From Ostreococcus lucimarinus (lineage: Eukaryota), in assembly GCA_000092065.1 (NCBI GenBank), contig CP000589.1: a stretch of DNA of 64,000 bases. The stretch is one strand, 5' to 3'. Made by a program: the position numbers and the translations under genes. Below, one piece after another: positions 14,225 through 52,045 of this stretch. Each line of letters opens with the position of its first letter. Position 1 is the first letter of the stretch. The notes below the pieces were generated by a model. That model worked only from the letters and a program-made list of their open reading frames with translations, was not told the origin of the DNA and made no database searches.

Positions 14225-14914
14225 CTACCGCACCCGCTCCTCGTCTCTCGCGTTCAACACGTCGACGCCTTCTCGCTCGAGCTCGTCCGCCAGAGCCATG
14301 ACGAGGGGTTTGTGGAACCGAGCGCGCGCGTTGATGAAGAAGTTGCCGATGGCAAACTCGCTCGACCCGATCTCGCGCGCCAACCGCCGCTTCTCCTCCC
14401 GCGTCGGGAACGGATGATCGAAATGGGCCAGTATCCACGACCGCAGCACTCGCTGCCCCTCCTTCGACCCGAGCCTTCGACGCCGCGGCTCGGCGTCCCT
14501 CGACGCGACGGCTCGCGCCTTCTCCGCCCGCAGTCGCGCCGACGCGAACGCCGCGCGAATCCCCGACCTCGCGCACTTCGTGATTCCCGACGGAAGCGTG
14601 AGCTCCATTTTCGCCCGCAGCGTCTCGAATCGCCGCTCGACGTCGTCCAGTCGCCGCTCGTACGCCGCGAGCGCGTCGTCGCGCATGTCGCGTCGAGTGT
14701 CGATTTGAGTCCTCGAGCGGCGCGCGCGACGCCACTCGGCGACGTCCCTCGGCGACGATCGCGCGCGACGAGCGTCTCGCGCGCTTGATCGAGCGTTTCC
14801 CGCGCGGTCCTCACGCGCGCTCCCGCGCGTCGTCGCGCGTCGTCGTGTGTCGAGTCGAGCGTTGTGAAAAAGGTGTTCAGTGTTGGCGTCGCGCGCGCGC
14901 GGCATCGACACCAT
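14225..14914 (-). CDS. TALE-class homeodomain protein (KNOX/BELL-like)
   Basis: C-terminal homeodomain with the three-residue loop extension typical of TALE: VLRSWILAHFDHPFPTREEKRRLAREIGSSEFAIGNFFINARARFHKP (compare WLFEHFLHPYP...NWFINAR.R.WKP). Real ATG at 14912-14914. Confidence 0.6.
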   Translation of the reverse strand: MVSMPRARDANTEHLFHNARLDTRRRATTRGSAREDRAGNARSSARDARRARSSPRDVAEWRRARRSRTQIDTRRDMRDDALAAYERRLDDVERRFETLRAKMELTLPSGITKCARSGIRAAFASARLRAEKARAVASRDAEPRRRRLGSKEGQRVLRSWILAHFDHPFPTREEKRRLAREIGSSEFAIGNFFINARARFHKPLVMALADELEREGVDVLNARDEERVR

Positions 14915-15004
14915 CTCGCGACGCGCGCGACCGCGCGCGACGGTCGATCGCTCGAACGCCGAGTCTCGCGCGCGAACGGACGCGACGCGACCGCGGTACG
15001 GTCG

Positions 15005-15036
<32 letters not shown>

Positions 15037-15063
15037 GAGACGGAGACTCGACTCAACACTAAA

Positions 15064-17565
15064 ATGTTGAGCGGCGCGCCGATCGACGGCGCGCGACGCG
15101 AGGCGAAGGGCTCGAACGACGTCGCGACGGGACGACGCGATGGGAAGGATTTGGACATGTCGCCGGTGCGAGCGTCGACGAAGCTGGCGACGCGGGCGCG
15201 GTACGCGGCGATCGACGAGGACGCGGGCGAGGAGGACGCGGCGAGCTTCGTCGACGCGGATGATCGAATGCCGTTCGGTCGCGCGAGTGATTTCCCGCCG
15301 TCTTACGGCGAGGCGAAGGCGTTGAAACGCGTTGAGGGCGAGGCGTCGGTGAGCGGGGAGCCGTCGAGCGAGGAGGAGGATCTCGAGGCGGCGACGCCGA
15401 GGGACGAACTCGGATTTGAAGTTCCGGAGAGTCTGCGGGAGACGCACGAGGCGCGACGCGCGGTGCGCGCGGATCACAGGATTCGACAGATGGAATATTT
15501 AGAGGTGTATCGGAACGTACCGGAGAAGCAGAGGGGCGTGGGCGGAGACGCGTGTTTGGCGCTCGCGGTGAATGGAATTCATCCGGACCACCGCGCGGAG
15601 ATTTGGGCGGAAAAGCTCAAGGCGCATGTGAAGCAGTACTCGAGTTCGCATTCGTTTTATCAGTACTTGGAACTCGGGCAGGCGTCGTTGAGCGACGCCG
15701 AGCGAGAGCTCATCGAGGGTGACGTGCGCGCGGCGTGCCCGACGCATCCACTGCTTCGCTCGGATGTCGCGGAATCGACGTCCAGATCGACGTCTTCGTC
15801 TTTCACGCACGCGTTCGCGAACACGGCGAGCGAGGGGTTCGTGCTCGGTGGAAAGGGCGTCGCATTTCAAGATTTCCCTAGGACGCTGATAAACATATTG
15901 ATAGCCGCCGCCGAGCGGAGTCCGCACGGGTACTGCTCAGGATTCGTCGTTCCCGCCGCCGTGATGCTGTTGCTCACCGAAGACGAAGAGGCGTCGTTTT
16001 GGATGCTCGCTGGGTTCACGGAAGACGTGCTGTCGAGCGTCATCTCGCGCTCGTGCATAAATCTGTACGCCGAAGCCAAGTACATCGACTTGGACGTCAT
16101 GCTCCACGAACCCGAATTGGCGGCGCATTTGAACGAAGGCGACTGCCGACCGAGCGTCGTCGTCGCCGGCTTGCTCACGCGCGTGGGCTTGGGCGTTCTT
16201 CCCACCGAAAGCGTGCTTCGATTGTGGGACGCGCTCATTCTTGAAGGCGGCCAGGTACTGGCACCGTTTAGCATTTTGGTGATGAAGGCTGCGAAGGAGC
16301 AGCTTCTCGCCGCCGCCGTCGGCGACCTGTGCGAGACGTTTGACGCCGAGGCGGCGCGGATGCACGACGTCGGCGATACTTTGATGGACGCCATCGTCGC
16401 CTCGAGGGAAATGAGTTCAAAATTTGACTCATTGAGCATAAGATTGGGCGAACGCGAGGTCACTGCGGATGTGTTGAACAATCTCTTCAACTTTAGAGAC
16501 GTCGTACGTTCGCTCTCAGAGAGCGCCGGCCCGGAGGGCATCGGGCGACAGGAAATCATCACTCGCGAAGAGCTTGAGGAGGTCGTGTGCGCGACGTACT
16601 GCCTCGAGCAGTTCACCGACGTGGACACGGCGGTCGACAAAAAGTACCAGAGTCGTGAGTTGCTCATGGCGTACGATTTAGCCGTGCGTCACAAAGAAGA
16701 GCTCAAGACGAAGGGCTTGCGCTTCGACGAGTTCATGAAAGTGTTACGCGTCAAGTCGAGCACGTCGAGCAAGCTGAAGATGCTCGCGGTAAAGGGTGAC
16801 ACCGTGGAAGCGCGGGTGAAGAATTTCATCATCGGTGAGACGAACGACGGTATGCCTACCGAAAAGTCGGTCAAGTTGGCGCTCTTTGTCGCCAACGGCG
16901 TCATTCCCACGCAGCGCCTGAGCAGCGCGCCGGTGGAGAGCAAGATTTTGAACGGACTCGCTTCGAGCGAAAATTGGTACTGCGAGATGCGCATGAACGC
17001 CCGCGCGGCGTTAATTCTCGCAAATTTCGCCATTCCGCTCTTCATAACCGAAGACGCCGTCCCGAGCATGGAACGCGACGACGCGAGCGACTCGAAAGAC
17101 GCCTTTGACGTCTCGATCATCGCGTCCAAAGCGAAAGCGCTGGACGATTCTCCGCGCGCGTTCGGCGGTCTCGTGCCGCTCGCGCACACCGAGTATCACA
17201 TTCTCGTGCAAACGCGAGAAGGCCCGCCTCGAGTGGTGAAGAAACGCTTCAGCGACTTCAAATCGCTTCACGAAGAGCTCCGCAAAAGCGGATGCTACAA
17301 CGTCACTCGCGTCGCCGAAAACGCCATCGGCACCGACGCCGCGCTGAGCGTCGACCCACACGTCGTCGCCTCACGTTCGGTGAGCTTACAGCGATATCTC
17401 GATCAACTCAACGCGTGCGGCTTACCGAAAGTCCATCGCTTTTTGCGCGCGTTTCTCGGTTTGGACGAGCCCAAATCCCGAGTCTCGCGTCTGCGTTCGC
17501 TCTGCGCCGCGTGTTCGCCCGCGCGCATCGTCTGCGGTTTCACCGCTCGCGCGCGACGACGATAA
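15064..17565 (+). CDS. TBC (Rab-GAP) domain protein with C-terminal PX domain
   Basis: TBC fold blocks: IEGDVRAACP...LINILIAAAERSPHGYCSGFVVPAAVMLL...LLTRVGLGVLPTESVLRLWDALILEG. PX motif near the C-terminus: VVKKRFSDFKSLHEEL...LQRYLDQL. Start is set at the first ATG that does not overlap the divergent TALE gene (MLSGAPIDG). Confidence 0.75.
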   Translation: MLSGAPIDGARREAKGSNDVATGRRDGKDLDMSPVRASTKLATRARYAAIDEDAGEEDAASFVDADDRMPFGRASDFPPSYGEAKALKRVEGEASVSGEPSSEEEDLEAATPRDELGFEVPESLRETHEARRAVRADHRIRQMEYLEVYRNVPEKQRGVGGDACLALAVNGIHPDHRAEIWAEKLKAHVKQYSSSHSFYQYLELGQASLSDAERELIEGDVRAACPTHPLLRSDVAESTSRSTSSSFTHAFANTASEGFVLGGKGVAFQDFPRTLINILIAAAERSPHGYCSGFVVPAAVMLLLTEDEEASFWMLAGFTEDVLSSVISRSCINLYAEAKYIDLDVMLHEPELAAHLNEGDCRPSVVVAGLLTRVGLGVLPTESVLRLWDALILEGGQVLAPFSILVMKAAKEQLLAAAVGDLCETFDAEAARMHDVGDTLMDAIVASREMSSKFDSLSIRLGEREVTADVLNNLFNFRDVVRSLSESAGPEGIGRQEIITREELEEVVCATYCLEQFTDVDTAVDKKYQSRELLMAYDLAVRHKEELKTKGLRFDEFMKVLRVKSSTSSKLKMLAVKGDTVEARVKNFIIGETNDGMPTEKSVKLALFVANGVIPTQRLSSAPVESKILNGLASSENWYCEMRMNARAALILANFAIPLFITEDAVPSMERDDASDSKDAFDVSIIASKAKALDDSPRAFGGLVPLAHTEYHILVQTREGPPRVVKKRFSDFKSLHEELRKSGCYNVTRVAENAIGTDAALSVDPHVVASRSVSLQRYLDQLNACGLPKVHRFLRAFLGLDEPKSRVSRLRSLCAACSPARIVCGFTARARRR

Positions 17566-43532: not shown

Positions 43533-43754
43533 TCACTCGACGTTCGCGAACGCGCGCTGCGCGTCCTCGTACGCGCTGCCGACGCCGACGCCGACGCCGA
43601 AGGCGAGCGCGGCGACGCGCGCGCGCGGGCCGCGCAGAAAGATGAAGGCGCTCGCGCCGCCCGCGAGGGCGCCGTAGCACGCGCGACGCAGGCCCACGTC
43701 CACGGCGCGCTCGACGGCGACGTCGTACGGCACGCGCGCGTCGTCGTGCGCCAT
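43533..43754 (-). CDS. MICOS subunit Mic10-like small membrane protein
   Basis: 73 aa from the first ATG. Two TM segments with the Mic10 glycine motif: RACYGALAGGASAFIFL...PRARVAALAFGVGVGVGSAYEDAQRAF (compare MINOS1 RCLADAVVKIGTGFGLG...PLAFGSGMGLGMAYSNCQHDF). It lies in what the large ORFs leave as intergenic space. Confidence 0.6.
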   Translation of the reverse strand: MAHDDARVPYDVAVERAVDVGLRRACYGALAGGASAFIFLRGPRARVAALAFGVGVGVGSAYEDAQRAFANVE

Positions 43755-43810
43755 GGAGGCGAGCGCGGCGCGCTGTGCGGGCGGCACAACGCGACGCGGC
43801 GCCGCGATTC

Positions 43811-44458
43811 ATGGGGTGCGCGCAGAGCAAAACCGCGACGGCGCGGCGCGGGGACGTGCGCCTGGTCGACGACGACGACGCGACGACGACGACGACGGAG
43901 GTGCGCGTGAAACTGGTGCTGCTCGGCGCGAGCGGCGCCGGGAAGACGGCGCTGTCGACGCGATTCGTGCGCGGGACGTTTGACGGTGAAAACGCGAGCG
44001 CGACGGTCGGCGCGGCGTTCGCGTCGACGACGCGCGCGCTCGACGACGCGCGGGCGCGGATAAAGTTTGAAATATGGGACACCGCGGGACAGGAGCGATA
44101 CGCGAGCCTGGCGCCGCTGTATTATCGAGGCGCGACGGCGGCGATGATCGCGTTCGACGCGCGCGACGGCGCGAGCTTCGAACGCGCGAGGTATTGGGCG
44201 GAAGAACTGCGCAAGCACGGCGACGCGCGGTGTCGGGTGCTGTTGGTGGGGAATAAAATCGACGCGGTGCGCGACGACGAGCGAGCGACGGCGCGCGAGG
44301 CGTGCGAGGCGCTGGCGAGGGAGTACGGGATGGCGGCGTATCGCGAGACGAGCGCGAAGACGGGCGAGGGCGTTCAAGAGGCGTTCGAGGACGTCGCGCG
44401 CGCGGTGATGACGCGGGAAATGAGCGCGCGGGAAGACGCGACGGTGGTTGACGCGTGA
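43811..44458 (+). CDS. Rab5-family GTPase of the plant ARA6/RabF1 type (N-terminal MGC acylation motif, no C-terminal Cys)
   Basis: Starts MGCAQSK. G-box motifs: LLGASGAGKTAL, WDTAGQERYASLAPLYYRGA, LVGNKIDA, ETSAKT. Rab5-like effector region TVGAAFASTT. C-terminus TREMSAREDATVVDA has no cysteine. Start is set at the internal ATG. Confidence 0.85.
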   Translation: MGCAQSKTATARRGDVRLVDDDDATTTTTEVRVKLVLLGASGAGKTALSTRFVRGTFDGENASATVGAAFASTTRALDDARARIKFEIWDTAGQERYASLAPLYYRGATAAMIAFDARDGASFERARYWAEELRKHGDARCRVLLVGNKIDAVRDDERATAREACEALAREYGMAAYRETSAKTGEGVQEAFEDVARAVMTREMSAREDATVVDA

Positions 44459-44561
44459 GGCGACGCGCAGAGTGTAAAATATGACGATGTAATCGCGCGT
44501 CGCGTCGTCGCGCTTTTAGACGTCTAACCGTCGCCGCAGTTCGCGACGCCGCGGTCCGCGA

Positions 44562-45743
44562 ATGCTGCGCGTCGCTCGCGCCCGAGCGCCGCGCGCGCGC
44601 GTGAATGGCGCTCGCGCGCGTCGTCGCGCGCGCCGAAGCGCCGCGCGCCGCACCGAGGCGACGGGAAACGGTGGCGAACACGAACCGCCGCCGCCACCGG
44701 GCGGCGTCGTGTCCTTCGTCTTGTGCGCGCCCGAAGGACCTTTGAACGTCGGCGCGGCCGCGCGCGTGATTCAAAACTTTTCGTTGCCGAGCTCGCTTCG
44801 CGTCGTGCGTCCGAGCGCGAGCGTGCTGCGCGACGACGACGACGGCGCGTCGGCGCCGCGGTTGCACGAAGACGCGTACAAATTCGCGGTGCACGCGAAG
44901 TGGATGCTGGACGATTGCTGCGCGCGAGGAGAGAGCGTGCTCGAGGCGGTGGCCGAAGCATCGCTCGTCGTCGCCACGACGGCGCGTCCGCGGGAAAATT
45001 TACCGCTGTTGACGCTCGGCGCGGCGTGCGAGAAAATGCGAGACGAAATCGCTCGAGGCGGCAAGTGCGCGATTCTTTTCGGGAACGAACGCACCGGTTT
45101 GACGAACGAAGAGCTCGAGCTCGCTGAATTCGGTGTTTCCATACCGACTTCGGCGACGGTCGGAACGTCCGCGATGGCGCGTCGAAACAAGTATTCCGGC
45201 GGCGCGGGCGTCGACGGATCGCAGACGGCGACGTCGCTGAATCTCGGCATGGCGGTCGGCGTCGTGGCTTACGAGCTATTTTCACAAGTGCACGCGGTGC
45301 GAGAAGACGACGAGACAAAGTCCATCGGTGGGTTCAATCAACCGCATCGCTTGACCGTGGGCGAGCGCGCCGCGCTCATCGACGACGTCGTCGCGGCGCG
45401 GCGAGCCGTCGATGTCTTCGCCGACGTCGACGCCGAAGAGGACGTCATCTTTGCCGAAAAGGAACGTCGCGCCATCACGGCGGTATTATCTTCGGGACCG
45501 ATCGCGACGCGAGATGCGACGCCGATTTTCATGCTCGCGCGGCGCGCGCGCGCGCTCGCCCGGCTCGCGGACCCGAACGCGTTAGTCGCCGACGCGGCGC
45601 GCGCGTACGCGCGAGCCAACGGTGGCGCCGTGCCGAGCACCAAATCTCTCAACGCGTACATTCGCGAAACATTAGGCATCAGTCTCACGAAGCGCGAGCT
45701 CGAGCGCGCCGCAGCGTTGGTTCGCGACGACTTGCCGCCTTGA
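44562..45743 (+). CDS. SpoU/TrmH-family (SPOUT) RNA 2'-O-methyltransferase with N-terminal presequence
   Basis: VSFVLCAPEGPLNVGAAARVIQNFSL...ILFGNERTGLTNEEL...SLNLGMAVGVVAYELF matches TrmJ/TrmH motifs. Arg-rich leader. Real ATG at 44562. Confidence 0.8.
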   Translation: MLRVARARAPRARVNGARARRRARRSAARRTEATGNGGEHEPPPPPGGVVSFVLCAPEGPLNVGAAARVIQNFSLPSSLRVVRPSASVLRDDDDGASAPRLHEDAYKFAVHAKWMLDDCCARGESVLEAVAEASLVVATTARPRENLPLLTLGAACEKMRDEIARGGKCAILFGNERTGLTNEELELAEFGVSIPTSATVGTSAMARRNKYSGGAGVDGSQTATSLNLGMAVGVVAYELFSQVHAVREDDETKSIGGFNQPHRLTVGERAALIDDVVAARRAVDVFADVDAEEDVIFAEKERRAITAVLSSGPIATRDATPIFMLARRARALARLADPNALVADAARAYARANGGAVPSTKSLNAYIRETLGISLTKRELERAAALVRDDLPP

Positions 45744-46782: not shown

Positions 46783-47640
46783 ATGACGACCCACGACGCC
46801 CTCGTCGGCACGCTCCCCGGCGTTCGCCTCGAAAATGACACCCACGTGTGTGAAATCACTCGCTTCGGCGCGCACGTCGCGTCGTGGCGCGTCAAACGCA
46901 CGAGCGATGAGCTTTTGTTTCGCTCAAAGTTGGCCAAGCTCGACGGAACGAAAGCCATTCGCGGCGGCGTGCCGGTGTGTTTCCCGCAATTCAGCGACAT
47001 GGGGCCGTGCGCGCAGTCGCACGGGTTCGCGCGAACGTCCGTGTGGGCCGTGGAGGCGCTGAGCGCGACGGAGGTGACGATGGTGCTGCGACGCGGTGAC
47101 GAGGCGGGCGACGGCGACGCGTTCGGCGGCGACTACGAGGCGCGGTTCACGGCGACGCTCGACGGTGACGCGTTGCGCACGGCGTTGCGCGTAACGAACG
47201 CTGGGAAGAGTTGTTTCGAGTTTACGTCGGCGTTGCACACGTACTTCAGGGTTTCAGATTGCGCGAAGACCAAGGTGCGCGGGTTGCGCGGGACGACGTA
47301 TTTAGACAATTTGCGCGCGAGAGCGAGCGCGAAGGACGACGAAGACGCGGTGGAGTTTTCTGGCGAGGTGGATAGGATCTATACCGACGCGCCGAGCGTG
47401 TTGACTATAGACGATGAGGCTCTCGGGCGGAGGTTTCGCGTTGCAAAGACGTCGACGTTTCCGGACGCCGTCGTGTGGAATCCGGCGTTGACGGACAAGA
47501 CGCGAGGCATGAGCGACTTTGGCGACGAGGAATACCGCGAGATGGTGTGCGTCGAAGTCGCCGGAGTGAAGGATAAGATCACCGTGGAGCCAGGAGAGAC
47601 GTGGGAGGCATCGCAGACGATTAGCTATAGCGCGATTTAA
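46783..47640 (+). CDS. glucose-6-phosphate 1-epimerase (aldose-1-epimerase-like, YeaD family)
   Basis: GGVPVCFPQFSDMGPCAQSHGFARTSVWAV...ALHTYFRV...DRIYTD...PDAVVWNP. Real ATG. Confidence 0.85.
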   Translation: MTTHDALVGTLPGVRLENDTHVCEITRFGAHVASWRVKRTSDELLFRSKLAKLDGTKAIRGGVPVCFPQFSDMGPCAQSHGFARTSVWAVEALSATEVTMVLRRGDEAGDGDAFGGDYEARFTATLDGDALRTALRVTNAGKSCFEFTSALHTYFRVSDCAKTKVRGLRGTTYLDNLRARASAKDDEDAVEFSGEVDRIYTDAPSVLTIDDEALGRRFRVAKTSTFPDAVVWNPALTDKTRGMSDFGDEEYREMVCVEVAGVKDKITVEPGETWEASQTISYSAI

Positions 47641-47666
47641 CTATAACAAACGCGCGGTTTCTACTT

Positions 47667-50600
47667 CTAGCTGAAAAAGTACACCGAGTCCTGAACGACG
47701 TCTAAATCCAAATCGCCAGGTGCGGGCGGCTGAGGGAACTCGTCCGCGACGTCTGGGTAATTCGCGCGGAACTCGTGATAAAGATTTTCGAGAAGAGGCT
47801 CTTTGTGAACCTCGATGAACTTTTCACGCAGGATGACATTCATGGTGTCCACGTCCGTCGCGTGCGTCCAAAAGGAATCGTGAACGCCGGCGAACGTCAA
47901 TCCGGCGTCCACGCACGCGATCGCCGTCCTCATCATATGAGAACTGTCGATACTGTGAATATAATTCGGCGGGAACGCGCTCCTTTGCTTCACTTTCATA
48001 ACCGGCTGTTGTTCGTCGTGAACTTTTAGCGAGAATGACTGCAAAATCGTCCGCACGCGCTTGGTTCGCTGACTGTGATACGGCTGCACGACGGGCAATC
48101 CCAGAGGCGTGGTCCAACGCACGGGCTCGCCCGCTGAGGTAGCGATCGTGGCGCAGGTCGTGAGCCATCCCATGACATCTCGGGCGTTTGAAAACATATT
48201 ATTCAACGCGTCGAGCGTCCTTTTCGCGGCGTAGTTGGACACACGATAGCGAAGAAGTTCGTTGTCCTCCATCGCCTCGCGCTCACGGAGACGGCTATAT
48301 ATTTGCGCTCGCGCCCCGATGAAAGTAACGCCGTACACGGACGTCATCACCGTCTGCTTCACAAGCTTACGGTCGATGTGCTGAGCGAGTGACATCGCGA
48401 GCTTGGCGTTGTTAACGTCTTCCTCGTCTTCGCTGTCGATGAGTTTAATATCCTCAGCAACGATGCGCTTCAACACATTCGCGATGCCGGTGTAGACGTC
48501 CGCACCTCTGTCTGCGGGGACCAAGTTCACGGCTTCACCACCGTGTAAGTCGCGACCGAGCGCGGCGTAGTGTTGCAACCCGTTGCACGACCCATCTTGA
48601 TGCACGGGTAAATTACTCATGAACTGCGTCGGGTCCGAGAGCTCGAGCGCTTTGTCGAGCTCGATGCACGTCGCCAAACACTGCCAGGGCTCTTCCGCTT
48701 CTTGCCACCACGCATCCTTCGCGAGCGGGTCTTGAGCCGACGCTCGCACGTCTTCTATGCGATCTTTGATGAACTGCACTCTCTCATCCATCGGAAGCTT
48801 GTCGGCGCCGTTACCAAACAGCGTCGCGCACTGGATGTGCATCCAACGCAGGCCGCGCTCGCCGAGCGGCTTCTTTTCGTTAAATCGAAGCAAACCGCGA
48901 CACAAATCACTTCCTATGTGATTCAAGTGCACGTGCATCGTGTACGCGCGCCCTCTAAAATCCAAATTGTGCGGGAAATAAATATTTGGTTCGTTTTTCA
49001 TCTCTCGCGCAACTTGCAATTTAATGAGAAAGTCGCAGCGCTGAGAGTGGAGCTCCATGTTTGACTTTTTCGTCTTTCGCACGCTTTGCAAAAAGTCGAT
49101 AACCTCACCTTTGCCCGGAAGTCCACTAGCGAGCAGCTGCAAACGCTTTTTGTCGCTGCGAAGCGCATATGACCCGCCGGGCCAGCGTGGGAGTTGCAAC
49201 TCAGCGCGAAGCGGAACCTCAGCCACGCCACCACCTCGAGCCCAGACTTCTTCCACGATCGGTAACACATCCGTATTGATTTGCCACGCGGTTTGCCCCA
49301 AAGCATTGAGAGCGTCTAACACGGGTTGGTATTGCACGGGCTCCCCCGATGCGTCCGCCTCGCGCGCTTTCTCCTCCAACGCCGCGATTTGCGCTCGACT
49401 CGGCCCTTCGTTCGAGTACTTCCCTCGCATGCATAGATTATCAGCGCGCAAGTATCCTCCCTTATTGTACCTCTCCCAATACCGCGGCGGGATAACCATG
49501 GGAAAGTGTCGCACCGGTACGAGCGCTGCGCGAGTCATCGTCTCCGTGTTGATGAATCTGTAAATGCTATCGTGCCAGTGCAGCATTCCGTACCCAGCCT
49601 CTTTGTAGTCGTGATAAAAGGCTGGAAGCGTCAATAATTCACCTTTTTCGTCCGGTACGCCAATCTTTGCCGTGTTCATGAGCGCGGTCAGCAGCACTGT
49701 TCCGATTTTAAGGCGAATCTCACGACCCCACTCCGCGTTCTCGAGCGCTTGCCGAGCGTGCTTGGACACCGACTTGATGGTGTTCATCTTTGACGTATCC
49801 AACGCCAAATTAATCCTATGCTCCGCCGCGTCGTCTATTTCCTTGACGTTGCCTTCGGTGTTCACTAGTCTAGATCGTCTAAATGCCTCCTTGGCCGCCT
49901 TTTCCGCCGACCGCATGCGCTCCAAGTTCACCTCAGCTTGCACCGCGCTTCCAACTTGGTCGGCGACGCTGATAAACTTCGCGCTCCCCGCCGCGGTCTG
50001 GTCGCCCCTTATGAACGACCACGCGCCATTATTCCTACCGTCACCCTTCATCAGCGTGCTGAGCGTCGCGTGAAGCGTCAACACCGCGAGTTTATCCGGT
50101 TCGAGCAAGCCCAAGTAGTGCCCGTACACGCGTCTGTCGACGCCCGGCACGTTGCCCCGTATCTTCTCTTGTTCTTCCGTCAGCGCCTCCACCAGAGGCA
50201 CGTAAAACGACGCCAGCAACTTTTGCACCACGGGTAACTGCGCCCCAATCCCCGCCGCGAACGTCTTCCTCGCCAACTCCTTGTACCGCATCACCTCTCT
50301 TTCCACCGCCAAATTTTCCGCCTCGCGCTGCTTCCGCGTTTGCGCCCGTCTCTCCCCCTCATCCGCGTCCTCCGCGCGCTCTCGCGCCTCGTGCCCCCCC
50401 GCGCGTCTGAGCTGTCGTCTTCGCGCGTGCAGCGACTGCAGCGCGAGCTTGATCTTCGCCCTCCGCTCGTCCGTAGTTTCAAAAATACGATCCTTCACGT
50501 CCCCGAACGCCGTCGCCGCCATGGACAACGGTCGAAGCTTCGGCCCCGGTCGCGGCGCGCGCTCGACCGCGTCCGCGGCGGCGGCGAGCAGCAAATCGAT

Positions 50601-50831
50601 CTCTTCGTCGTCCTCCATCAACTCCGCGGACCATCGCTCGATGGACACCGCGTCGCGCGGCGCGATCGACGACGTCGCGCTCGACGACGACGCGCTCGAC
50701 GCGCGCCTCGCGCGCGCGCGACGATCGACGGCGTCGACGCTCGACGCGCTCGACGCCGCCGAAGACGACGTCGCGCTCGCCGCGCGCGACGCGCGCGACG
50801 CCGCCGCGCGCGCGGCGCGCCGCGCCAACAT
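47667..50831 (-). CDS. phage T7-type single-subunit DNA-directed RNA polymerase (organellar RpoT)
   Basis: Catalytic motifs: HQDGSCNGLQHYAALGRD, VTRKLVKQTVMTSVYGVTFIGA, FSLKVHDEQ, HDSFWTHA. Ser/Ala/Arg-rich N-terminal presequence. 1054 aa; real ATG. Confidence 0.95.
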   Translation of the reverse strand: MLARRAARAAASRASRAASATSSSAASSASSVDAVDRRARARRASSASSSSATSSIAPRDAVSIERWSAELMEDDEEIDLLLAAAADAVERAPRPGPKLRPLSMAATAFGDVKDRIFETTDERRAKIKLALQSLHARRRQLRRAGGHEARERAEDADEGERRAQTRKQREAENLAVEREVMRYKELARKTFAAGIGAQLPVVQKLLASFYVPLVEALTEEQEKIRGNVPGVDRRVYGHYLGLLEPDKLAVLTLHATLSTLMKGDGRNNGAWSFIRGDQTAAGSAKFISVADQVGSAVQAEVNLERMRSAEKAAKEAFRRSRLVNTEGNVKEIDDAAEHRINLALDTSKMNTIKSVSKHARQALENAEWGREIRLKIGTVLLTALMNTAKIGVPDEKGELLTLPAFYHDYKEAGYGMLHWHDSIYRFINTETMTRAALVPVRHFPMVIPPRYWERYNKGGYLRADNLCMRGKYSNEGPSRAQIAALEEKAREADASGEPVQYQPVLDALNALGQTAWQINTDVLPIVEEVWARGGGVAEVPLRAELQLPRWPGGSYALRSDKKRLQLLASGLPGKGEVIDFLQSVRKTKKSNMELHSQRCDFLIKLQVAREMKNEPNIYFPHNLDFRGRAYTMHVHLNHIGSDLCRGLLRFNEKKPLGERGLRWMHIQCATLFGNGADKLPMDERVQFIKDRIEDVRASAQDPLAKDAWWQEAEEPWQCLATCIELDKALELSDPTQFMSNLPVHQDGSCNGLQHYAALGRDLHGGEAVNLVPADRGADVYTGIANVLKRIVAEDIKLIDSEDEEDVNNAKLAMSLAQHIDRKLVKQTVMTSVYGVTFIGARAQIYSRLREREAMEDNELLRYRVSNYAAKRTLDALNNMFSNARDVMGWLTTCATIATSAGEPVRWTTPLGLPVVQPYHSQRTKRVRTILQSFSLKVHDEQQPVMKVKQRSAFPPNYIHSIDSSHMMRTAIACVDAGLTFAGVHDSFWTHATDVDTMNVILREKFIEVHKEPLLENLYHEFRANYPDVADEFPQPPAPGDLDLDVVQDSVYFFS

Positions 50832-51080
50832 CCGCCCCGCACTGCCGCATCGCGTCCGCGTCGCCGATCGACGACGACCGATCGCGATGCGCGCGCGCGA
50901 ACCTCACGCCGTCGATCGCGTCGCGCGCGCGAACCTCGCGCCGTCGATCGCGCGAGCGACGCGCGAGCGATCGCGAGACGGATCGCATCGATCACACACG
51001 GATCATCGCGTCGCGGCATCGCGTCGCGCCATCGCGCGTCGCGCGCGGTCTTTCTGCGACGCGTCGAGCGAGACGTGACC

Positions 51081-51085: not shown

Positions 51086-51489
51086 GTACGTGGCGATGCG
51101 AAGCGCGCGATGCGACGCTCGATTCGCGCGCGACGGCGGGGCGATCGGGGCGCCGTGGACCGCGGCGCGCGCGCGACGGCGGGGCGGGGCGTCCGTCGGC
51201 GTGAAAGCCCTAGCGTTGGGACGAGCATCGCGTCGCGCTCGATCGAGCGCGCGCGGGGGGGCGGCGACGCGCGCGCGATCTCGCGGATTTGTCGTGCGAA
51301 ATCGTGCGCGCGATCTCGCGCGCGCGCGGCGCGCGGGCGGCGCGCGGCGGGCGAGGTCGGGATGAAGTCGCCGACGCGGAGGGTTTCGCGCGCGCGATCG
51401 GGATGCGCGCGCGACGACGGCGACGACGCTGGAACGGTGACCGCGAACGAGACGACTGACGAAAACGCACGTTTATTTCACGATGACAG

Positions 51490-52045
51490 TAAGACGAAGA
51501 AACAGGTGAAGAACGGGCAACCGAGCTTCTACCCCGCCGATGACATCAAAAAGCCGCTGAAGCGCACGATCGAGCACAAGCAGACCAAGCTTCGCGCATC
51601 CATCGCGCCCGGTCAAGTGCTGATCCTTCTCGCTGGACACTTGAAGGGTAAGCGCGTGGTGTTCTTGAAGCAGCTCGAGTCTGGGTTGTTGCTCGTCGCC
51701 GGTCCGTACGGTGTGAATGGCGTGCCGGCGAAGCGCGTGAACCAGCGCTACGTCATCGCGACGAGCGAAAAGGTTGACGTGAGCGGCGCCGCCGCCGCGG
51801 CGGCCAAGTTCACCGATGCCTCGTTCAAGAAGCCGGCGAAGGATCGCAGTAACAAGAAGAGTGAAGAAGAATTCTTCAAGGTTGACCTCGCGAAGAAGGA
51901 GCTTCCGGCTGATTACCTCGAGAACAACAAGGCTCTCGACAAGGCGCTCGGCGACGCCATCGCGAAGACGCCGTACCTCAAGGAATACATGTCCACGCTC
52001 TTCACTTTGAAGTCTGGCGACAAGCCGCATGAGATGAAGTTCTAA
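51490..52045 (+). CDS. 60S ribosomal protein L6e (main exon)
   Basis: KKQVKNGQPSFYPADDIKKPL...KLRASIAPGQVLILLAGHLKGKRVVFLKQLESGLLLVAGPYGVNGVPAKRVNQRYVIATSEKVD...LKSGDKPHEMKF is collinear with eukaryotic L6e. The 5' end is defined by the proposed acceptor. Confidence 0.85.

Follow-up and report, generated by a model that had tools for sequence, protein, structure and literature searches.

Textbooks present ARA6 as the "plant-unique" Rab5, and arguments about how plants built a second endosomal route draw on its origin. How widely this lineage is distributed among green algae is the question raised by one gene in a 64,000-nucleotide stretch of the Ostreococcus lucimarinus genome (contig CP000589.1, assembly GCA_000092065.1), which is called the window below. 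The gene occupies positions 43811-44458 on the plus strand and encodes a Rab5-family GTPase. A first-pass annotation, made from the sequence alone, had assigned it to the ARA6/RabF1 type because the protein begins with an N-terminal acylation motif and ends without prenylation cysteines. Our analysis indicates that the gene is probably the O. lucimarinus representative of the N-acylated, Cys-less Rab5 paralogues found in green plants (ARA6/RABF1 type), and that its reported absence from this species is an artefact of annotation.

A Rab5-family GTPase with an N-terminal acylation motif

The gene is a single exon, an uninterrupted open reading frame (ORF) of 215 codons that runs from the ATG at 43811 to the TGA at 44456-44458 and encodes 215 amino acids (aa). 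The protein begins with MGCAQSKTATARRGDVRLVDDDDATTTTTEV, continues into the G domain, and ends with AVMTREMSAREDATVVDA before the stop. Pfam assigns it to the Ras family (1.3e-44, aa 34-200). Its top sequence matches in the PDB are ARA7/RABF2b (2e-43, 50% identity over aa 29-199), Ypt51, and Rab5A/B/C, and compared with these, the matches to Rab26, Rab11, and Rab8 fall short by about 10 orders of magnitude.

The Rab5-type GTPase domain spans aa 32-199 (43904-44407), as judged from Pfam, the ARA7 alignment, structure prediction, and signature residues. Motifs G1-G5 are all intact. They include the P-loop GASGAGKT (G39-T46; 43925-43948), T65 in switch I with the neighboring VGAAF, D90TAGQ94 (44078-44092) with the catalytic Gln94 retained, YASLAPLYYRGA, N148KID151 (44252-44263), and S181AK183 (44351-44359). 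In a predicted AlphaFold model built on 30 relatives, most of the G-domain core has a confidence score (pLDDT) >90, residues 1-28 are of low confidence (∼47-65), and helix α5 extends to the C-terminus with no long flexible tail. A Foldseek search with this predicted structure returned ARA7 first, followed by Rab5A/C. Sequence and predicted structure both bear out the Rab5-like core that the first-pass annotation had proposed. The gene is complete, intronless, and conserved, and its G domain looks functional.

The MGCAQSK start can be read directly from the DNA. Codons 1-6 (MGCAQS; 43811-43828) fit the consensus for N-myristoylation at Gly2, G-{EDRKHPFYW}-x-x-[STAGCN]-{P}, and Cys3 is a candidate S-palmitoylation site. 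The rest of the N-terminal extension (aa 7-31; 43829-43903) forms a variable linker between the putative lipid anchor and strand β1. This linker is probably disordered, as suggested by its length variation among orthologues, its low pLDDT values, and a nonsynonymous divergence (dN) of 0.32 relative to a sister lineage. At the other end of the protein, the last cysteine is C165; the only others are C3 and C141. The final 50 residues are Cys-free, and with them the 16-residue tail (aa 200-215, TREMSAREDATVVDA; 44408-44455), which is predicted to continue helix α5 and is likewise Cys-free across the clade. Thus, both ends of the protein are as the first-pass annotation described them.

The same architecture in green relatives

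The best 120 matches of the Rab protein among 5.8 billion proteins were compared with a reverse set, the best 119 matches to the canonical green Rab5 of Picocystis. MGC is present in 102 of the 120 (89 at the annotated start and 13 just inside over-extended models), and a Cys occurs among the last five residues in only two of the 120. The remaining non-MGC matches are fragmentary, chimeric, or begin with MGQ. In the reverse set, 117 of 119 proteins carry a C-terminal Cys motif and none has an MGC start. Among the best 120 are proteins that bear the name RABF1, from Pycnococcus ("rabf1") and many land plants, and proteins without a type name from O. tauri, Mantoniella, Klebsormidium, and Mesostigma; further N-acyl relatives, from Trebouxia and Astrephomene, were obtained by cluster look-ups.

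Within the Ostreococcus-type clade, which includes O. tauri, all 12 members have MGCxxS and a Cys-free tail, and their N-terminal extensions measure 31-63 aa. When 30 green N-acyl Rab5 proteins are aligned, M1 and G2 show no variation, and conservation of C3 and S6 is at least 90%. This pattern is not due to chance, since MGCxxS and the Cys-free tail are kept while the length of the extension varies, and since MGC starts and Cys tails separate between the two match sets.

N-acylated, Cys-less Rab5-like proteins are also found in core chlorophytes, namely in Astrephomene gubernaculifera (P0217, GFR43313.1) and Trebouxia sp. (P0109/P0269, KAL3131352.1), with MGTCAS... and MGCSSS.... Astrephomene has a canonical Rab5 (P0360) besides its N-acylated protein. 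Chlamydomonas has been reported to have no ARA6 homologue. The distribution of N-acyl Rab5 within Chlorophyceae is patchy or under-annotated.

Relationship to ARA6/RABF1

To obtain signature columns, the cores of 18 streptophyte RABF1 proteins were compared with those of 25 canonical Rab5 proteins (including ARA7, Ypt51, human Rab5C, and Picocystis). A column was taken as RABF1-specific if its residue is conserved in RABF1 and nearly absent from canonical Rab5. Of 13 such columns, 7 show the RABF1 state in the O. lucimarinus protein, with Leu103 (APLYY), Ala98, His136, Val66, and Met174 among the residues concerned. The shared states include the Leu in APLYYRGA (100% of RABF1 versus 0% of canonical proteins), ERYA, KHG, TVGA, and the Met before strand β6. 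Only one of eight canonical-specific columns has the canonical state, and this state is common to all non-streptophyte N-acyl proteins. The core of the protein scores 207 bits on a streptophyte RABF1 profile and 189 bits on a profile of Viridiplantae canonical Rab5.

Trees were constructed by neighbor joining (NJ) from Kimura distances over 164 core columns, with 500 bootstrap replicates. The backbone of the first broad tree was without resolution, and the analysis was therefore rerun with named green canonical Rab5s and with subsets of sequences. The Ostreococcus clade is monophyletic with 99-100% support, as is the group of green canonical Rab5s (98-100%), and the two are joined in 0 of 500 replicates (0%). 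All green N-acyl proteins form one clade in every full-data tree. The bootstrap for this clade is 94.6% when canonical Rab5s are the only alternative, and with green and canonical sequences only, the Ostreococcus clade is nested inside the green N-acyl group in ∼80% of replicates.

Several observations weigh against assignment to the ARA6/RABF1 type. NJ is the sole tree method on which the groupings are based, and the branch that leads to the Ostreococcus clade is long. Bootstrap support for a single green N-acyl clade drops to 34%-48% when 15 protist Rab5-like sequences are included and to 8% after five more non-green MG-start sequences are added (P0153 and P0195 being unplaced). The core of the Ostreococcus-clade protein scores about equally on the streptophyte RABF1 profile (207 bits) and on a pan-eukaryote canonical Rab5 profile (204 bits), the latter being a permissive one. 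Unlike the Ostreococcus clade, the N-acyl proteins of Mantoniella, Trebouxia, Pycnococcus, and the Micromonas-like group favor RABF1 by 18-56 bits. The gene also evolves fast, with a ratio of nonsynonymous to synonymous divergence (dN/dS) of ∼0.63 relative to the sister lineage, compared with ≤0.15 for most neighboring genes. Finally, tblastn searches with the protein and with the ARA7 core revealed no second Rab and no canonical Rab5 in the 64-kb window, and a canonical paralogue is reported only in the literature (PMC3871812).

P0153 and P0195 (Logan/ENA) have an MGC start, are Cys-less, and carry the RABF1-type sequence ERYA(S/N)LAPLYYR. Their placement is unstable, and their inclusion collapses the green N-acyl bootstrap.

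These observations could also be explained by convergence. The Ostreococcus/Bathycoccaceae protein may have arisen independently, as apicomplexan Rab5B is assumed to have done, from a Rab5-related gene in which an acyl anchor at the N-terminus took the place of a prenyl anchor at the C-terminus. If so, it would share the mechanism of ARA6 without being its orthologue. The equal scores on the RABF1 and pan-eukaryote canonical profiles are in keeping with such an origin, as is the weak bootstrap for a united green N-acyl clade under broad sampling. The N-acyl, Cys-less architecture is of multiple origin or phylogenetically unresolved in the literature (PMC3398913; PMC3871812), and switching of membrane anchors is common among Ras-superfamily GTPases (PMC5869587). 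However, the derived residues listed above, including the Leu of APLYY, are common to RABF1 and all other green N-acyl proteins, and the Ostreococcus clade is nested among these proteins in most replicates of the green and canonical data set. Derivation from a green canonical Rab5 receives 0% support. Moreover, the Mantoniella and Micromonas-like versions are clearly RABF1-like, such that a single ancestral gene that accelerated in Ostreococcus is more parsimonious. We therefore consider convergence unlikely.

Membership in the green N-acylated group is the reading that we prefer. That the fast-evolving Ostreococcus clade is strictly orthologous to streptophyte ARA6 receives only moderate support from the NJ trees and is judged probable. 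The grounds for this judgment are the derived residues and the architecture held in common with RABF1, along with the clearly RABF1-like genes of sister Mamiellophyceae. The ARA6/RabF1 label of the first-pass annotation thus stands as regards architecture, nearest relatives, signature residues, and exclusion from canonical green Rab5, and its claim of lineage identity is reduced to a probability. No supported placement outside the N-acyl group was found in the trees, although the support for that group falls from 94.6% to between 8% and 48% once protists are included.

Comparison with known systems

The O. lucimarinus protein shares with Arabidopsis ARA6/RABF1 and its streptophyte orthologues (Chara CaARA6, Marchantia, Klebsormidium, and Mesostigma) a Rab5-family G domain, the MGC start, Ser6, and an extension of ∼30 aa. 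C-terminal cysteines and a long hypervariable tail are absent from both. The diagnostic states FVRG, TVGA, ERYA, APLYYRGA, KHG, and Met139 are held in common, and identity over the whole protein is ∼46%-50%. In contrast, the O. lucimarinus protein is far more divergent than other chlorophyte N-acyl Rab5s. It has GKT-A where RABF1 has GKS-C, ASA in place of SKV, and GAAF in place of the streptophyte GASF, and its tail is not Pro-rich but acidic and helical.

Among the closest described proteins are those of O. tauri (XP_003081384) and Micromonas sp. RCC299 (XP_002504059), which were termed "ARA6-related" and which likewise have MGCXXS and no Cys tail (Hoepflinger et al. 2013). The O. tauri protein (P0098) and the O. 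lucimarinus protein belong to one clade, with 99%-100% support. However, the two are only 54% identical, and the O. tauri protein has DTAGE and an insertion of ∼20 aa. The Micromonas-type protein has an MGQ start and is nearer to RABF1 than is the O. lucimarinus protein.

Canonical Rab5 proteins (ARA7/RABF2b, RHA1, human Rab5A-C, and yeast Vps21/Ypt51) have the same fold, the same G motifs, and the same small residue before Phe in switch I. They differ in having no MGC start and in carrying a hypervariable tail of ∼30 aa that ends with CC, CXC, or CCX. They also have APMYY, GKSS, ESTIGAAF, and RQ/QG where the O. lucimarinus protein has RABF1 states.

The first-pass annotation held that an acylated N-terminus together with a Cys-less C-terminus defines the plant-specific lineage. 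This is too strong a statement, because alveolate Rab5B proteins (Plasmodium PfRab5b and Perkinsus) combine an N-terminal myristoylation/palmitoylation motif, a Rab5-related core, and the lack of a C-terminal prenylation motif (PMC3912013; PMC4912828), and monophyly of these proteins with plant ARA6 is unsupported (PMC3398913; PMC3871812). Three non-green MG-start Rab5-like proteins in our set (P0258, P0239, and P0214) have the canonical APMYY and score 30-37 bits better on the canonical Rab5 profile.

A proposed mode of membrane attachment

Myristoylation of Gly2 would follow established rules of N-myristoyltransferase. By analogy with Arabidopsis ARA6, the initiator Met would be removed, Gly2 would be N-myristoylated cotranslationally, and Cys3 would be S-palmitoylated. 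Such acylation would tether the GTPase by its N-terminus to endosomal membranes, the plasma membrane, or both. If this is the case, then the Rab escort protein (REP) and Rab geranylgeranyltransferase (Rab-GGTase) would not be needed, and extraction by Rab GDP dissociation inhibitor (GDI) would not be possible.

A small residue before the invariant Phe of switch I is typical of Vps9 substrates in the Rab5/Rabex-5 structural literature. The switch I sequence VGAAF has such a residue and appears compatible with Vps9-type guanine nucleotide exchange factors (GEFs). Nucleotide cycling may thus still be driven by a Vps9-domain GEF, and the protein may serve a second endosomal route, distinct from that of a canonical, prenylated Rab5, as its Arabidopsis counterpart does. 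The functional hallmarks of the ARA6/RABF1 type are activation by a VPS9a-type GEF, membrane cycling without GDI, MVE/plasma-membrane localization, and the PUF2/VAMP727-SYP121 pathway. The acylation motif has been described for ARA6 and CaARA6 (PMC3871812). For ARA6, release from membranes is independent of GDI, the activator VPS9a is shared with canonical Rab5, and the partner VAMP727 is found only in seed plants (PMC3398913). PUF2 is an effector of the ARA6 pathway (PMC5947987).

Rate of evolution and constraint

Four metagenome contigs (L001-L004) represent a sister lineage, and the first of these, L001, is ∼96% identical to the window overall. The Rab gene was aligned with its L001 counterpart (window 43811-44458 versus L001 10001-10636). 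The two proteins are 86.7% identical, and the dN of 0.085 is the highest among eight neighboring genes. The corresponding dN/dS values are 0.63 for Rab, 0.05 for UCH, 0 for UEV, 0.06 for aldose epimerase, 0.15 for RNA polymerase, and 0.13 for Bud13. The UCH, UEV, aldose epimerase, and RNA polymerase proteins are 98.7%-100% identical to those of L001. Changes in the Rab protein are concentrated in aa 117-175 and in the N-terminal linker.

The O. tauri-type orthologues (P0098 and P0136) have DTAGE in place of the catalytic DTAGQ, along with an insertion of ∼20 aa that is rich in Asp, Gly, and Asn and is located between β2 and β3. From its sequence, the O. tauri orthologue may be GTPase-deficient. 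The high dN/dS, together with the DTAGE substitution and the loop insertion of O. tauri, indicates that constraint on the G domain is weaker than usual for Rabs, while MGCxxS is invariant.

Weak constraint of this kind raises the possibility that the protein is decaying or is no longer an enzyme. The gene might be drifting toward loss, or its product might serve as a GTP-locked scaffold instead of a cycling switch. A G-domain dN/dS of ∼0.6 against a very close sister lineage, the top rank in dN among the neighboring genes, and the Glu for Gln exchange and loop insertion in O. tauri would all be expected in that case, and frequent loss in small genomes has been proposed (PMC3871812). In contrast, none of the G1-G5 motifs is missing from the O. 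lucimarinus protein, Gln94 is retained, and each lineage sampled has an intact ORF with strict conservation of MGCxxS. Furthermore, six independent marine metagenome contigs carry the coding sequence (CDS) without a single difference over its 648 nt, and the core of the AlphaFold model is predicted to fold with confidence. Decay of the O. lucimarinus gene, or a non-enzymatic role for its product, is thus highly improbable, and a retained, fast-evolving member of the green N-acylated group remains the preferred reading.

Completeness of the gene model

The ends of the gene were examined by comparison with L001. The ATG and the MGC codons are kept in the sister lineage, and both frame and similarity are lost just 5′ of the ATG. 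There is no in-frame ATG upstream of 43811, and the Rab frame is open in the 5′ direction only as far as a GTG at 43775. The comparison with L001 confirms, at the level of sequence, that the ATG at 43811 is the start. The gene upstream is a divergent Mic10/DUF543 gene (43533-43754, minus strand; an exact match to XP_001419847.1). The 56-bp spacer between this gene and the Rab ATG (43755-43810) is 75% identical to L001, compared with 89%-95% in the flanking CDSs, and leaves no room for an upstream coding exon.

At the 3′ end, the TGA is at the same position in L001, and every indel in the CDS is in frame. The next gene, which encodes a SpoU-type methylase on the same strand (44562-45743), starts 103 bp after the Rab stop (spacer 44459-44561). 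Identity to L001 is 89% in the Rab CDS and ∼75% in both spacers. No conserved ORF was found in the 103-bp spacer when it was compared with L001. Because the stop is conserved and the next gene is so near, a hidden exon encoding a Cys tail is effectively excluded. The check for a downstream Cys exon that the first-pass annotation had proposed thus revealed no conserved alternative exon. Splicing to a Cys-containing tail was considered as well. Five GT-AG combinations would yield a protein ending in ...CKI*, and most of these splices would remove part of helix α5. They are unconserved in L001, and CKI is not a Rab motif.

The notion that the gene model itself is an artefact, and that the true protein is a canonical Rab5 with a Cys C-terminus or has its true N-terminus in an unrecognised exon, draws on these hypothetical splices and on the fact that the public RefSeq model of the gene is wrong (5′-partial), such that annotation here is unreliable; it is essentially refuted by the conserved stop and in-frame tail indels in the sister lineage, the short distances to both adjacent genes, the unconserved reading frames of the spacers, the lack of a Rab CC/CXC motif in CKI, the Cys-free ends of orthologues in all 12 lineages, and a G domain that aligns with ARA7 without interruption.

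Two TGTAA motifs are located in the 3′ spacer, 15 and 30 nt past the Rab stop (44473-44477 and 44488-44492, plus strand), and both are kept in L001. TGTAA occurs within 100 nt past the stop in 6 of 20 confident genes of the window, compared with 2.8% of random 100-nt windows. This pattern is consistent with a chlorophyte-type polyadenylation signal that is used by only some genes. Since the motif is enriched and not universal, it is supporting evidence only.

The reported absence of ARA6 from O. lucimarinus

The RefSeq entry for this gene (XP_001419641.1/ABO97934.1; P0508), a "predicted protein, partial" of 183 aa, is annotated only from codon 33. It begins with VKLVLLG and is without the first 32 residues (43811-43906), including MGCAQSK. 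Hoepflinger et al. (2013; PMC3871812) described ARA6-related Rab5-like proteins with MGCXXS in O. tauri and Micromonas sp. RCC299. As for O. lucimarinus CCE9901, the same study reported RAB5 homologues, stated that homologues of ARA6 "were not found," and inferred from such absences that ARA6 is easily and frequently lost in small genomes.

The reported absence is an annotation artefact, probably explained by the 5′-truncated RefSeq model, which is without the acylation motif. In the metagenome collection, the Rab protein as called from the upstream GTG is present in 366 blocks, Tara Oceans assemblies among them.

For O. tauri and Micromonas RCC299, the question of distribution among green algae that the first-pass annotation had posed had for the most part been settled by 2013, and the N-acylated Rab5 has been called a paralogue of Chloroplastida (Záhonová et al. 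2018; PMC5869587). The prasinophyte kind of N-acylated Rab5 is already known from related algae (Hoepflinger et al. 2013). What is new here is that the gene is present in O. lucimarinus, that its RefSeq model is truncated, and that the inference of loss is wrong for this species.

A canonical Rab5 paralogue

A search with the canonical Rab5 of Picocystis returned a Mamiellales-like metagenome protein (P0359), whose sole contig is 2 kb long, has a GC content of 57%, and offers no link to O. lucimarinus. P0359/P0530/P0534 (L005 77-733) represent an abundant canonical Rab5 of marine metagenomes that ends with ...KSQCC and forms a 132-member cluster with contigs of up to 1.57 Mb. The gene has an apparent 5′ intron that is read through by prokaryote-style gene callers. 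This protein is likely a canonical Rab5 of Mamiellales.

Other features of the window

Gene order is common to the window and the sister-lineage contigs L001-L004: UCH, UEV, Mic10, Rab, SpoU methylase, TraB-like, aldose epimerase, phage-type RNA polymerase, RPL6e, and Bud13. Exact RefSeq matches were found for several neighboring proteins, namely UEV (XP_001419846.1), UCH (XP_001419640.1), Mic10 (XP_001419847.1), and glucose-6-phosphate 1-epimerase (XP_001419644.1). An Rfam scan of the window gave zero matches.

The region from ∼46800 to 51000, which holds the aldose epimerase and the phage-type RNA polymerase, is 99.5%-100% identical to L001, compared with ∼95%-97% in its flanks. This near-identical stretch of ∼4 kb suggests recent recombination or introgression, or else unusually strong constraint. 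Farther along, a 311-aa ORF for RPL6e (51110-52045, plus strand) matches the Pfam L6e domain only in its last 110 residues, and metagenome gene callers differ in this region (145+227 aa, 311 aa, or 478 aa). A 926-aa ORF (14785-17565, plus strand), located ∼26 kb upstream of the Rab gene, contains a RabGAP-TBC domain (PF00566, 1e-20); there is no evidence of a functional link between the two.

Implications for the evolution of N-acylated Rab5

The practical consequences of these findings are modest. The gene model can be corrected, and one more data point is added for Rab evolution. The intact O. lucimarinus copy weakens the published inference that ARA6 is easily lost in small genomes. Taken with the matches in Mantoniella, Pycnococcus, Trebouxia, and Astrephomene, this copy speaks for an origin that precedes the split between chlorophytes and streptophytes.

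A broader scenario can be drawn, for and against which we find the case evenly balanced. The N-acylated Rab5 lineage may date to the common ancestor of all green plants and may have been kept, though fast-evolving, even in Ostreococcus, the most reduced of free-living eukaryotes, and the published losses from small genomes would then be, at least in part, annotation artefacts. Its ancestral role would be independent of VAMP727, for example in traffic that leaves endosomes for the plasma membrane, and the DTAGE protein of O. tauri would point to a GTP-locked derivative.

O. lucimarinus could serve as a minimal-cell system for asking what an N-acylated Rab5 does without its seed-plant partners. 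If the lineage is indeed ancestral, then the original ARA6-type role would be open to study in a transformable unicell.

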